This document shows positions 6,363-42,935 of a DNA stretch of 64,000 bases, in pieces. The notes beneath the pieces were generated by a model. It was not told where the DNA came from. It saw nothing but the letters and a program-made list of their open reading frames with translations, and did not search any database. Numbering within the stretch: the stretch's first letter is position 1; the number at the start of each line of letters is the position of its first letter. The stretch comes from Candidatus Hermodarchaeota archaeon (GTDB lineage Archaea; Asgardarchaeota; Hermodarchaeia; Hermodarchaeales; Hermodarchaeaceae), in assembly GCA_016839805.1 (NCBI GenBank), contig JAEOTO010000032.1, positions 1 to 64,000 on the forward strand, written 5' to 3'. The position numbers and the translations under genes were made by a program.

Positions 6363-6476
6363 GCCGGGTTAGCCAAGTGGTTACGGCGCGGGCCTTGAGA
6401 GATGGGTATTAACCATAATTCCAAGGCAGCCTGTGGCTTCCGAGCCGCAAGGGTTCGAATCCCTTACCCGGCGCCA
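6363..6476 (+). tRNA. tRNA-Ser(TGA) with canonical 37/38 intron; CCA encoded
   Basis: GCCGGGT/ACCCGGC acceptor stem, CT-TGA-G anticodon loop split by a 28-nt insert, long variable arm, GGTTCGAATCC T arm. Confidence 0.88.
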
Positions 6477-7022: not shown

Positions 7023-8486
7023 GTGGTAAGATGTATCATGAAGGAAAAATTGAAACAACTGGATGAATATCGTTGGTGGTTAGACAAGTCAGCCCGGGAT
7101 CGTATGAACGTTGGGGCTAAAATCATTGGATCACGGAAGATTATTGATACGTTAGAAAATGCGGCTGTAGAACAATTAACCAATGTGGCGACTCTCCCCG
7201 GAGTTGTTGAACCTGTTCTTGCAATGCCTGATGCTCACTGGGGTTATGGATTACCAATGGGAGCTGTTGGAGCTTTTGATGCTGATGAAGGGGTAATTTC
7301 TGCAGGTTGCACTGGATTTGACATTAACTGCGGCGTTCGATTGATTCGCACTAACCTTAACGTTACTGAGGTGCAACCAAAGTTACGTCAATTAATGGAC
7401 GACCTCTTTAATCGTGTTCCTGCAGGTGTTGGATCTAAAGGAAAAATACGGTTAAGCGATAGCCAATTTACAGATGTCGTCCGGTTGGGGGCACGTTGGG
7501 CTGTCGAAAATGATCATGGTGTCGAAGCTGATTTGGCACATTGTGAAGAAAATGGTTCCATGGAGGGAGCTGCCACTAACGCCCCACGAATTACTGAAAA
7601 AGCCCGGCGTCGTGGTCGACCTCAACTTGGAACTTTGGGCGCTGGAAACCATTACCTTGAAGTTCAAAAAGTCGAGAAGATTTTTGACGAGGCTGCTGCA
7701 AACACCTTTGGTCTTAAATCAGGTCAAGCAGTTATAATGCTGCATTGTGGTTCCCGAGGATTTGGACATCAAGTAGCTACAGATTATCTTGAACGGATGG
7801 CAATAGCTGTTAAGAAGTACAATATCTGGCTCCCCGATAAGCAATTAGTCTGTGCTCCTGCCTCATCGCCTGAAGGACAGGATTATTACGCAGCCATGAA
7901 GGCAGCTGTCAACTTCGCGTTTTGCAATCGGCAGGTCATGACGCACTGGATTCGCGAAGGCTTTGAAAGTGTATTCGGTCGGGACTGGGAGAAACTTGGT
8001 CTAGATCTTGTTTATGATGTAACACACAATATTTGCAAGTTCGAGACCCACGAATTAAACGGATCTAAACGCGATCTTTACGTTCATCGAAAAGGAGCAA
8101 CACGCGCCTTTGGACCAGGTAATTTGAAAATCCCTGATGACTATCAGAGAGTTGGACAACCAGTATTAATCGGTGGTTCCATGGGAACTGCCTCGTATGT
8201 GCTGGTTGGAACTGATCAAGCGATGAAGGAAACTTTCGGTTCGACTTGTCACGGTGCGGGTCGTGCAATGTCCCGTAAAGCCGCAATTCGTCGATATCAT
8301 GGTAGGGACATCAAGAATTCCCTTGAGCAAAAAGGAGAAGTCATCCGGTCAACAGGCACTAAAATTCTTGCTGAAGAAGCGCCTAAGGCTTACAAAGATG
8401 TTCACATCGTTGTTGAATCTGTTCATGGTGCAGATATCTCTCGAAAAGTAGCTTGCCATGTGCCATTAGGAGTAGTGAAAGGCTAA
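7023..8486 (+). CDS. rtcB: tRNA-splicing ligase RtcB
   Basis: MPDAHWGYG, GFDINCGVR, LGTLGAGNHYLE, HRKGATRA, STCHGAGR, EEAPKAYKD. Confidence 0.97.
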   Translation: MVRCIMKEKLKQLDEYRWWLDKSARDRMNVGAKIIGSRKIIDTLENAAVEQLTNVATLPGVVEPVLAMPDAHWGYGLPMGAVGAFDADEGVISAGCTGFDINCGVRLIRTNLNVTEVQPKLRQLMDDLFNRVPAGVGSKGKIRLSDSQFTDVVRLGARWAVENDHGVEADLAHCEENGSMEGAATNAPRITEKARRRGRPQLGTLGAGNHYLEVQKVEKIFDEAAANTFGLKSGQAVIMLHCGSRGFGHQVATDYLERMAIAVKKYNIWLPDKQLVCAPASSPEGQDYYAAMKAAVNFAFCNRQVMTHWIREGFESVFGRDWEKLGLDLVYDVTHNICKFETHELNGSKRDLYVHRKGATRAFGPGNLKIPDDYQRVGQPVLIGGSMGTASYVLVGTDQAMKETFGSTCHGAGRAMSRKAAIRRYHGRDIKNSLEQKGEVIRSTGTKILAEEAPKAYKDVHIVVESVHGADISRKVACHVPLGVVKG

Positions 8487-23239: not shown

Positions 23240-23371
23240 TGGTCCCGGCGCCCGGATTTGAACCAGGAACCATCTGGTATCTGCGTTGGTTGACACCGGG
23301 TCATTGCCATATGGCTCAGGGTGCGGTGGTTACCTACAGCCAGACGCTCTACCAGGTTGAGCTACGCCGGG
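23240..23371 (-). tRNA. tRNA-Tyr(GTA) with canonical intron
   Basis: C1-G72 CCCGGCG/CGCCGGG acceptor stem, TCTGG-CT-GTA-G...A-CCAGA anticodon arm. Confidence 0.9.
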
Positions 23372-23973: not shown

Positions 23974-24570
23974 GTGACAGATGAGAAATCCTTGGAGATA
24001 AAAGCTCCTGAAGATGAACGTCCACAACTCCCGGATGAATCTATCCCTGCACAATTTTCACGCGGTCGAGTCACTGTGAAGGGAGAGCAGGCGCCCCTAC
24101 TGTATGAGGCTGGATATTATGGTACCTTGAAGAATGGAAATAAATTGATATTAGAGCCAGAAGAAGTTTTATTGTTAGTTCGACGCCAACGCATTCAAGT
24201 ATCGGATTCAAAGGGAACTAATTTTGAATTTGCTGATTTACTGGAACAACTTGGTGAACGGCATCCAGGTTTGTGGACTAGGTTTCTTGTATATAGTGAT
24301 CTACGAAGCCGTGGATATGTCGTCCGGACAGGATATGGTAAGGGGTTATTATTTCGGGTATATCCACGTGGAGCTAAACTCAATGAAGCGACAGCAAAAT
24401 ATTTCGTGTGTGTCATTTCAGAGGGGGTGCCATTAAAAGTTACAGAAATTGAGACTTTCAGTAAGCAGGCAAAGCGCAATCGAAAGAAGCTAATGCTTGC
24501 TGTCCTAGACCGACAAGGTGAAACGACCTACTACCTTGTAGCTCCTGCAGATATTGTTGCAGAGAAATGA
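23974..24570 (+). CDS. endA: tRNA splicing endonuclease subunit (possibly the structural subunit)
   Basis: FLVYSDLRSRGYVVRTG..FRVY, RKKLMLAVLD..TTYY; the catalytic His position reads TAKY. Confidence 0.85.
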   Translation: MTDEKSLEIKAPEDERPQLPDESIPAQFSRGRVTVKGEQAPLLYEAGYYGTLKNGNKLILEPEEVLLLVRRQRIQVSDSKGTNFEFADLLEQLGERHPGLWTRFLVYSDLRSRGYVVRTGYGKGLLFRVYPRGAKLNEATAKYFVCVISEGVPLKVTEIETFSKQAKRNRKKLMLAVLDRQGETTYYLVAPADIVAEK

Positions 24571-30308: not shown

Positions 30309-30430
30309 GGTGGCGCGGTCATAGAAGCTGGGTCACACCCGGTCTCGTCAGATCCCGGAAGTTAAGCCGGTTTCGTCGCTGTGAGTACTGATGTCCGAGA
30401 GGTGTCGGGAAAATGGTGAACTGCGCCACT
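30309..30430 (+). rRNA. rrf: 5S rRNA, unlinked from 16S/23S
   Basis: Terminal helix GTGGCGCGG/CTGCGCCAC, CACACCCGGTCTCGT, GAAGTTAAGCC, AGTACTG, GGGAAA; about 122 nt. Confidence 0.92.
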
Positions 30431-34717: not shown

Positions 34718-35116
34718 ATGGTTCGACAGCGTAAAAACACTAATAGAACTCAGGAAATATTCGAAGAGCGTTTCAAAAAAGGAGTTAAGCTCTTATTAGA
34801 GCTTTCTAGTAAGGGTGTGCCCATTGCCGTGGAGGGAATTAAAGATATTACTGCTCTTCGTAGGATGGGATTAACTGGGCCCATACATACCCTAACGGGT
34901 CATAGCATCGTGAGTCTAGCTGATGAGCTTGCGGATTCAAATCAGCTTTTGATTTTATTTGACTTTGATCGCCGCGGAGAACAACTTTCTAGGCAATTAA
35001 CACACCAATTACAAGGTCGAGGCGTACATTTGTTATTGAAGGAACGGAGTCAGTTACGACGTGCTTTCTGTTGGTATTCTCGAGTTATTGAAGGACTAAG
35101 ATTCCCCGTGAAATAG
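34718..35116 (+). CDS. Small TOPRIM domain protein
   Basis: VEGIKD..AL and DFDRRG motifs; upstream of dnaG. Confidence 0.8.
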   Translation: MVRQRKNTNRTQEIFEERFKKGVKLLLELSSKGVPIAVEGIKDITALRRMGLTGPIHTLTGHSIVSLADELADSNQLLILFDFDRRGEQLSRQLTHQLQGRGVHLLLKERSQLRRAFCWYSRVIEGLRFPVK

Positions 35117-35282: not shown

Positions 35283-36594
35283 ATGGTAGCAAATGCAGAA
35301 ACCACTGGTACCACTAAATATTGTATTCGTGGGAAAATTGAAATTGATGGAGTAGTAGAAACCCCGGATGTTGTAGGCGCCCTCTTTGGCCAAACTGAGG
35401 GCCTACACTTCATATCATTGATTTGAAGGGGCAATCGGCGAAGATTTGGACCTCAGAGAATTGCAACAATCGGGACGAATTGGTCGAATAAAAGTTGAGC
35501 TGCACTCGGAAAGTGGCAAATCAAAAGGTACTATTACCATTCCATGCAGTCTTGATCGAACGGAAACTGCAATCCTTGCAGCAGCCATTGAAACGGTGGA
35601 CCGCGTGGGTCCCTGTGCTGCTAAGATTACACTAGAAAAGGTAGAAGACGTTCGAGAAGAAAAACGTAAACGCATTATTGACCGTGCTGTAGAACTATTA
35701 CGCGACTGGGAGGGAGAAATCTCCCCAGATTCGCAGGAAATGACCGACACTGTAGTTAGCGAATCCCGTACAGCCGATATAACGAAAATTGGTAAAGATA
35801 GGCTTCCGGCAGGCCCTGATACGCAAAAATCTGATACCATCATTATTGTCGAAGGACGTGCTGACGTACTCGCACTACTTAGAGCTGGTATTAGAAATGC
35901 TGTTGCAGTTGAAGGTACCTCGATTCCAAAATCATTACGCGAAATTATTAACTCAAAAACGGTAATTGCCTTCCTTGACGGAGATCGAGGAGGCGATCTG
36001 ATTCTCAAAGAATTATCTCAAGTCTCGAATGTAGATTTTGTTGCAAGGGCACCTCATGGTAGAGAAGTAGAAGAGCTTACACATAAAGAAATTACCAAGG
36101 CGCTTCGCCATAAGGTTCCTGCTGAACAACTAACTGGGAAACCAAGGAGAAGGAAACCTACAACGACCCCGAGGACAAAACAGCAGATACGTCGGACCAA
36201 ACCACAGAAGACCAAAGAACCGCCTCGGAAGACAAAAACCACTACTACAAAAAGGACTTCACGAGCTAAAGCGATTGAAAAAGCGAAAGTAGAACCAAAG
36301 GAGTTGGGCATTCCAAAACCAGTTCTTGATTCTGCCGAGAAGATACAACAGACTATGATGGCTGTTATTTTTGATGATAATTTCAAACAACTTCAAGAAC
36401 CGCATGTTGGAGAACTAGCAAACGAGTTACAGAAGCTTGACAAAGCAAATACGCTTCTTCTAGATGGCGTGGTTACTCAGCGTCTCATTGATATTGCAGA
36501 GGAACGAGGGGTTAGGTTGATTATTGGTGTTCGTATTGGTAATATTGTCAAGAAGCCTGCAAAAATGCGAATTCATACATTTGATGAGTTATAA
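35283..36594 (+). CDS. dnaG: Archaeal DnaG (exosome-associated); exons 35283-35406 and 35435-36594, 427 aa after splicing
   Basis: Exon 1 encodes [22 protein letters not shown]; exon 2 encodes [34 protein letters not shown]. Confidence 0.9.
35407..35434 (+). other. 28-nt BHB-type intron in dnaG mRNA
   Basis: Helix GCCT/GGGC, bulges ACA and AAT, intron stem CTTCA/TGAAG; contains an in-frame TGA and shifts the frame. Confidence 0.85.
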
Positions 36595-42582: not shown

Positions 42583-42935
42583 GGTTGGACGGTGAGCCTA
42601 GGCGGGGGGCTAGAAGCCCCGCAGCGCCGCTACGGGCTGGCTAAGGCTCCCCTGTACCGCAGATGCTCTATACGGCGGGCTGAATGCCGACACTAGGCTT
42701 TCTGACCTGTTGTACGACTTGCTGTTCGTGGCAGTGACGATCCGCCTCGGAGGATCGCTGGTGGCGGTAGGCTTTTCGTAGGAAGGGCTGAATCGCCTTT
42801 ATCAGGTAAACCCAGCGAGACCCGGGAGGGAGCAGCGTAAGCCTGTACTGTAGATGCTTCCGAGATCCGGGTCCGAGACCTGGCGGTGAGTACGGCATCA
42901 GTGAGGGTTGACGACCGTCGGGGCTCCCGTCCGCC
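42583..42935 (+). ncRNA. ffs: Archaeal SRP (7S) RNA, about 350 nt with extra helices
   Basis: Terminal GGACGG/CCGTCC, Alu GGGGGG..CCCCTGTA, helix 6 GTAG tetraloop, helix 8 GACCCGGGAGGGAGCAGC. Confidence 0.88.

Follow-up and report, generated by a model that had tools for sequence, protein, structure and literature searches.

A short endonuclease-type intron predicted within the dnaG coding sequence of Hermodarchaeota, with further candidate mRNA introns in Asgard archaea

The dnaG locus

The stretch of DNA analysed (64,000 nt, hereafter the window) belongs to contig C22 of a Hermodarchaeota genome of 2.3 Mb in 50 contigs that is 86.7% complete. Genes around dnaG follow the order TyrRS, small Toprim protein, dnaG, a membrane-like ORF of 94-98 aa, V-ATPase subunit D and NAC, and the same TyrRS-to-NAC order occurs on a 74-kb contig of another Hermodarchaeota species. 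The small Toprim protein (132 aa, 34718-35116, plus strand) is encoded directly upstream of dnaG and has weak Toprim similarity. An SRP RNA (42590-42929) and a lone 5S rRNA (30311-30429) are also encoded in the window.

The dnaG gene starts at ATG 35283. Its frame 0 opens with MVANAE and ends, after the residues HFISLI, at an in-frame TGA (35424-35426), and the +1 frame then carries the remainder of DnaG, open between 35437 and the stop codon at 36592-36594. The initial annotation of this locus, which was made from the letters of the DNA, had placed the start, the TGA and the change of frame correctly, and had proposed that removal of positions 35407-35434 restores the family consensus. Deletion of this segment indeed gives GAG GGC CTA CTC GGC GAA GAT (EGLLGED) and restores the DnaG family motif GQTEGLLGEDLDL. 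When all deletions of 25, 28, 31 and 34 nt starting between 35392 and 35424 were evaluated, 35407-35434 was the only one that yielded GQTEGLLGEDLDL, and it coincides with the bulge-helix-bulge (BHB) cutting rule. The residues predicted across the exon junction are GQTEGLLGEDLDLR.

The resulting exon 1 (35283-35406, plus strand) comprises 41 codons plus the first base of a split Leu codon, and is delimited by its translation, the NCBIfam profile for archaeal DnaG (NF003108) and its pN/pS value (see below). Exon 2 (35435-36594, plus strand) completes the Leu codon with two bases, continues for 385 codons and ends with the stop; it is recognized by NF003108 and by Pfam Toprim domains. Exon 1 matches NF003108 at profile positions 1-30 and exon 2 at positions 32-419, so that the split Leu codon alone is missing between the two; the profile is thus continuous across the proposed junction. 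A search of this genome and of related genomes found dnaG to be single copy.

As the initial annotation had anticipated, gene callers truncate this gene. The DnaG call on this contig has 377 aa and lacks the N-terminus, and none of the more than 80 public Hermodarchaeota-type DnaG calls (NCBI, JGI, ENA and Logan assemblies) has an intact N-terminus, their lengths being 325-411 aa versus about 427. Among exon 2 homologues and cluster members, no full-length (spliced) Hermodarchaeota DnaG was found, every one being truncated. DnaG is truncated in the public annotation because gene callers miss the intron-separated exon 1.

Structure of the insert

The 28-nt insert (35407-35434, plus strand) extends from the last base of a 5' bulge through the second base of a 3' bulge and contains the TGA at 35424-35426. 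In the minimum free energy (MFE) fold of positions 35380-35460 (-27.4 kcal/mol, z = -2.7, with 2 of 200 shuffles as stable), the exon strand GCCT (35401-35404, plus strand) pairs with the intron strand GGGC (35429-35432, plus strand), the latter being assigned from both the MFE fold and the family alignment. The helix H so formed (GCCU/GGGC) has four base pairs and is paired in 16/16 distinct family sequences as well. It is followed by the 5' three-base bulge ACA (35405-35407, plus strand), which is invariant, remains unpaired in 18/18 folds and would be cut after 35406. The intron hairpin h' (35408-35428, plus strand) pairs CTTCA (35408-35412) with TGAAG (35424-35428) around a variable loop; it has 5-9 bp and reaches 8-9 bp in most relatives. 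The 3' bulge AAT (35433-35435, plus strand) is replaced by ATT in three relatives, and its predicted cut after 35434 is set by the reading frame.

The fold had initially been described as a bulge-helix-bulge. Both helices (GCCT/GGGC and CTTCA/TGAAG) and the ACA bulge stand, whereas the strict form of the motif does not, as the 3' AAT lacks an outer helix. In the register of the strict hBHBh' motif the outer exon-exon helix is reduced to one G-C pair, and in the MFE fold the 3' bulge AAU falls in a 2x2 internal loop (GG/AA) accompanied by a 4-bp helix of coding bases. The single outer G-C pair and the 2x2 loop at the 3' site therefore assign the insert to the relaxed HBh' form. No Rfam family was found at the insert site, and a group I or group II intron or an intein was ruled out by the 28-nt size, the lack of an Rfam match at the site and the in-frame stop.

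Conservation across related genomes

Forty related genomes were searched and dnaG was found in 17 of the 18 other family members, namely 14 of the same genus and three of the sister genus, a fourth sister-genus genome giving no match. The insert occupies the identical dnaG site in all 17 relatives, with a length of 28 nt in the same genus and 29-31 nt in the sister genus, and in each of them the junction CTA C-TC rebuilds Leu-Leu. At the level of the phylum, an insert at this site is present in all of this family and absent from the approximately 355 other Asgard genomes with a dnaG match.

Alignment of the 18 sequences revealed that 93.8% of the structure cells are paired, versus 34-52% after the partners are shifted by 1-3 columns. 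In h', 95% of the cells are paired, and the loop is free to vary in sequence; compensatory double changes are seen at three pairs (C-G to U-A, A-U to G-C and U-A to A-U) and are limited to five alignment cells among kindred sequences. Substitutions in helix H are exclusively G:C to G:U across the family, a one-sided covariation that arises because its 5' strand is coding. The pN/pS values are 0.07 for exon 1 and 0.065 for the start of exon 2 (15 genus members), the former indicating that the 41 N-terminal codons are translated and constrained.

A contig with joined exons

Searching exon 1 alone against proteins longer than exon 1 recovered P0053, a JGI "DNA primase" that reads through GQTEGLLGEDLDL uninterrupted. 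Its contig (L183, Ga0395754_008471, 1524 nt, JGI sample 3300036486) carries dnaG alone, with flanks of about 100-120 nt on each side. At the junction, GAGGGCCTAC continues directly into TCGGTGAAG, which is identical to the predicted exon joint.

A counterpart of this protein is provided by the 74-kb JGI genomic contig mentioned above (sample 3300042731), whose gene order is the same as that of the window. The L183 protein is 99.65% identical to the product of the 74-kb contig over 286 aa, and exon 1 agrees in 43/43 residues; from those identities we infer that both contigs derive from the same Hermodarchaeota-type species. On the 74-kb contig, P0213 (49 aa) agrees with exon 1 at 43/43 residues before ending in HLISKI-stop, and P0034 (369 aa) begins 74 nt beyond P0213. 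These coordinates fit a 28-nt insert only (2784 + 189 + L = 3001, hence L = 28), and 2 + 41 + 6 codons account for the 49 aa of P0213. Judged from these contigs, one species has both an interrupted and an exactly joined dnaG, a pair that is, to our knowledge, new.

L183 could be a cDNA, or else an intron-less allele. If the sample is RNA, the contig is direct evidence of dnaG splicing; if it is DNA, it represents an allele from which the intron is missing precisely between the predicted cut sites, and such an allele would, by inference, be most easily made via a spliced RNA intermediate. At about positions 1150-1160, L183 has one extra A in an A-run relative to the 74-kb version, which shifts the frame of the last ~80 codons and may reflect either slippage or a homopolymer error. 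A scan of JGI metagenome contigs for the exact spliced-junction pattern gave MDSZ01222258.1 as sole match. It was rejected as a spliced Hermodarchaeota dnaG, being from an unrelated archaeon with an intron-less dnaG that shares the DNA of the motif.

Splicing machinery in the genome

The window encodes a structural (beta-like) subunit of the tRNA splicing endonuclease EndA (198 aa, 23974-24570, plus strand; Pfam tRNA_int_endo), which matches the N-terminal half of two-domain EndA models as well as beta-subunit models. A second, alpha-like paralogue lies outside the window (G000:C26:78271-78525) and matches the catalytic half of EndA models; the Tyr, His, Lys pattern of active subunits was read in it by eye. 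The RNA ligase RtcB is encoded at 7173-8483 (plus strand) and matches Pfam PF01139 over its full length (E = 1e-171). Asgard EndAs have an (alpha-beta)2 architecture with an L1 loop, and relaxed motifs are cut only by loop-bearing (alpha-beta)2 and epsilon2 EndA types (PMC5829648). The gene complement indicates that the host encodes RtcB and a two-subunit EndA of predicted broad specificity.

Many intron-bearing tRNA genes were predicted in the genome by ARAGORN, the intron boundaries being imprecise and a comparison with the dnaG intron uninformative. Two such genes occur in the window, at 6363-6476 and 23240-23371 (Ser-TGA with a 28-nt intron, and Tyr). Together with RtcB and one EndA subunit, both are located less than 30 kb from the dnaG intron.

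Proposed splicing of the dnaG message

Taken with the unique consensus-restoring deletion, the conserved insert with its structure-preserving changes, the constrained exons and the encoded enzymes support the original proposal of an EndA/RtcB-type intron in dnaG. We estimate a probability of about 90% that 35407-35434 is a genuine spliced intron of the archaeal endonuclease type, of relaxed HBh' form, within the dnaG coding sequence, and the dnaG message almost certainly has to be spliced. In the predicted pathway, the exon GCCU of the pre-mRNA would pair with the intron GGGC beside the 5-9 bp intron hairpin, and the (alpha-beta)2 EndA would cut each 3-nt bulge behind its second base. RtcB would then join the 2',3'-cyclic phosphate and 5'-OH ends, composing the Leu codon from C+UC and giving a DnaG of 427 aa. 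The 28-mer would be released, probably as a circle. The unspliced mRNA would yield only a 47-aa peptide ending in HFISLI. The simplest view is that the intron is a tolerated, vertically inherited insertion that ties DnaG synthesis to the tRNA-splicing machinery, and no evidence of a function for the dnaG intron itself was seen.

Other interrupted genes in the same genome

A whole-genome scan for further BHB-split genes had been suggested along with the first description of the dnaG insert. Combining motif and frame under strict settings (three or more G-C pairs in H, an h' no shorter than 5 bp, and A as the first base of both bulges), a scan that is blind to introns with other bulge sequences returned 19 matches, of which three are considered real (dnaG, aEF-2 and cbf5) and the rest are chance-like. 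A loose scan was unusable: most of its 3175 candidates, of which 430 had introns no longer than 60 nt, were ordinary gene boundaries. A candidate in TFS/RpoM (contig C46) was discarded as a false positive, the full zinc ribbon being already present in the unspliced frame.

The aEF-2 gene (fusA) contains an HBh'-type intron of 31 nt outside the window (G000:C22:180577-180607; locus L121:777-807, plus strand), with helix H formed by GGGG/CCCC and bulges AAA and AAU. It splits EEQRRG-I-TIKSAN at the RGITIK motif, and the predicted exon junction joins CGAAGGGGAA to TAACCAT. Exon 1 covers positions 2-54 of the Pfam profile GTP_EFTU and exon 2 positions 56-186. The insert is found in 12 relatives from both genera, with many compensatory changes; none of the other sampled Asgard families has it.

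In cbf5, also outside the window, a 42-nt HBh'-type intron with an in-frame TGA (G000:C9:52493-52534; locus L122:2693-2734, minus strand) has helix H CUGG/CCAG and bulges AUA and AAA. It splits GIINLD-KPPGPTSHEV, the predicted junction running from AATCTGGAT into AAGCCTCC. As for aEF-2, Pfam matches are continuous across the cbf5 junction, and there is covariation in relatives. All 14 genus members that gave a match, counting this genome, have an insert of 40-43 nt there; the sister genus and other families lack it. The frame of cbf5 exon 2 (L122:203-2692, minus strand, 830 codons) also carries a LAGLIDADG intein (Pfam Intein_splicing, LAGLIDADG_3 and Hom_end), so that, with the HBh' intron, the gene would carry one interruption to be removed from the RNA and another to be removed from the protein. 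The corresponding frame has 836 aa in one relative and about 260-350 aa in others.

The dnaG, aEF-2 and cbf5 introns have no sequence in common beyond the motif, and their differing phyletic ranges suggest that they were gained successively.

dnaG introns in other Asgard families

In a survey of 400 genomes of the phylum, 373 of which had a dnaG match, the dnaG N-terminus was split in about 70 of the matched genomes, including many of one large family. Within that family, the split-match signature indicates that the presence of a split dnaG differs between species of two genera. Loci from 13 genomes of these other families were sampled, and two further ones had come up in the initial search of relatives. 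Of these 15 loci, 14 (L024, L029, L090-L092, L099-L103 and L110-L113, all from other Asgard families) could be resolved to an insert of 29-40 nt that lies 10 nt upstream of the Hermodarchaeota site, between a Gln and a Thr or Leu codon.

These upstream introns resemble that of Hermodarchaeota in their location within the same conserved motif of dnaG and in their geometry, with H of the form GGSC/GSCU and bulges AA-N and AA-A. They differ from it in their insertion point and have no intron sequence in common with it. The Hermodarchaeota family lacks the upstream intron and has its own site. On the basis of these comparisons, the two introns probably represent two independent gains within one motif. 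No publication on the upstream Asgard dnaG intron was found.

Alternative explanations

One alternative concerns the origin of the intron and is compatible with its splicing. The intron may disrupt the target of a homing or RNA-guided nuclease or of an integrating element, constituting an 'immunity mark', or may itself be mobile. All three mRNA introns interrupt stretches that code for highly conserved motifs (GQTEGLLGED, RGITIK and INLDKPPGPTSHE, the most conserved of their genes), other Asgard families have gained a separate dnaG intron 10 nt away, and cbf5 also holds a LAGLIDADG intein, all of which would fit a recurrent target or mobility. Against this, the genome contains no guide, spacer or repeat that matches either the intron or the spliced junction; the guide match to the junction that had been envisaged at first was not borne out, since BLAST of the genome with the intron and the spliced junction gave chance 11-13-mers only. 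The three introns are, moreover, without common sequence beyond the motif, and inheritance within the family looks vertical. An origin of this kind is regarded as improbable.

The insert might instead never be removed, leaving either an N-terminal peptide and a separate C-terminal DnaG or a truncated DnaG made from an internal start. Gene callers do report ORFs of 377-411 aa from TTG or other codons downstream of the insert, as well as an ORF of 47-50 aa for exon 1. However, the break falls inside a codon, within the most conserved DnaG motif, and TTG 35446 is TTA in several relatives, so that there is no conserved start codon downstream of the insert. Exon 1 is as constrained as exon 2, which argues against a truncated protein. 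Reading on into the insert gives residues (HFISLI, HLISKI, HFMSAM and others) that are unconserved save for what the stem imposes, and an uninterrupted protein with precisely the predicted junction is on record (P0053). A split or truncated DnaG is thereby rendered very unlikely, well behind removal of the insert by splicing.

Still less probable is passage of the ribosome over the insert, whether through programmed +1 frameshifting or by hopping across about 28 nt (translational bypass). The bypass site of phage T4 gene 60 is a stable hairpin with a stop codon, and the break in dnaG, where a stable hairpin and a stop codon coincide, resembles it. Yet frameshifting anywhere in the insert gives non-consensus residues such as ...EGLHF... 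or ...GAIGED..., and for hopping there are no matched take-off and landing codons that yield LL. Leu-Leu-Gly would be lost in a hop from GGC to GGC, and most relatives have GGT as the second codon. The same helix-bulge geometry, formed by different sequences, in aEF-2 and cbf5 also speaks against bypass and leaves it hardly credible beside excision of the RNA.

Finally, a pseudogene lesion or an assembly or sequencing artefact, the latter named initially as what might refute the intron and consistent with the insert having been seen in metagenome-assembled genomes only, can be practically discounted, since the same insert recurs across two genera (18 genomes) and in more than 80 gene calls made on independent assemblies, and dnaG is single copy and under purifying selection.

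Relation to known introns and implications

The system most similar to the proposed dnaG intron is the crenarchaeal cbf5 pre-mRNA intron (Watanabe 2002; Yoshinari 2006; Yokobori 2009, PMC2738675). Both are short, BHB-type, frame-breaking interruptions of a coding sequence that are mis-annotated, occur in hosts with hetero-oligomeric EndA and are gained and lost by lineage. The cbf5 introns are found in Desulfurococcales and Sulfolobales, whereas the Hermodarchaeota intron differs in its gene, its phylum (Asgard) and its relaxed HBh' motif. Splicing had been confirmed for cbf5 and for no other archaeal gene (PMC2738675), while that of dnaG is predicted here from sequence. No report of a dnaG intron was found in the literature, the only coding-sequence BHB introns in the literature searched were those of crenarchaeal cbf5, and a 2026 preprint on Asgard tRNA introns makes no mention of mRNA introns.

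In structure, the insert resembles the non-canonical archaeal tRNA introns of HBh' and hBH type (PMC5829648, PMC6379350). These share with it the 4-bp helix, the 3-nt bulge, the intron helix, the disrupted second bulge and cuts after the second bulge base, and are processed by (alpha-beta)2 or epsilon2 EndA. The dnaG intron is unlike them in that the substrate is an mRNA without a tRNA body and helix H is made of coding bases.

HAC1/XBP1 messages are cleaved by Ire1 in eukaryotes and ligated by RtcB in metazoa. Like the splicing proposed for dnaG, theirs is independent of the spliceosome, removes a short structured intron, proceeds through 2',3'-cyclic phosphate and 5'-OH ends and relies on a tRNA ligase to restore the frame. 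It differs in that the endonuclease is Ire1, not EndA/TSEN, and in being stress-regulated. The link of RtcB to splicing of the HAC1/XBP1 type is cited in PMC5829648.

If the dnaG reading holds, it would add a second gene family to the archaeal mRNA introns, with two more examples in one genome, in the archaeal group closest to eukaryotes, and the synthesis of proteins from essential genes could depend on the EndA/RtcB machinery. A broader proposal, put forward tentatively and with the odds against it, is that endonuclease-type mRNA splicing may be a regular layer of Asgard gene expression, in which essential genes (dnaG, aEF-2, cbf5) have repeatedly and independently gained BHB-type introns in their most conserved motifs. 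Such gains might be ongoing, because the cbf5 intron is confined to a single genus and the upstream dnaG intron differs in presence between species of two genera. The introns may persist by coupling genes to EndA/RtcB, or by protecting or exploiting conserved DNA target sites. Their gain at hot spots would be traceable through presence and absence between genera and species.

The introns would also explain the truncated annotation of DnaG, EF-2 and Cbf5, which matters for marker-gene phylogenies and completeness estimates. As a separate observation on public records, contigs of the Hermodarchaeota lineage (74-94% DnaG identity) are titled Odinarchaeota, Thorarchaeota, Hodarchaeota or Promethearchaeota in GenBank, a mixture which indicates that the names given to these metagenome-assembled genomes are unreliable.
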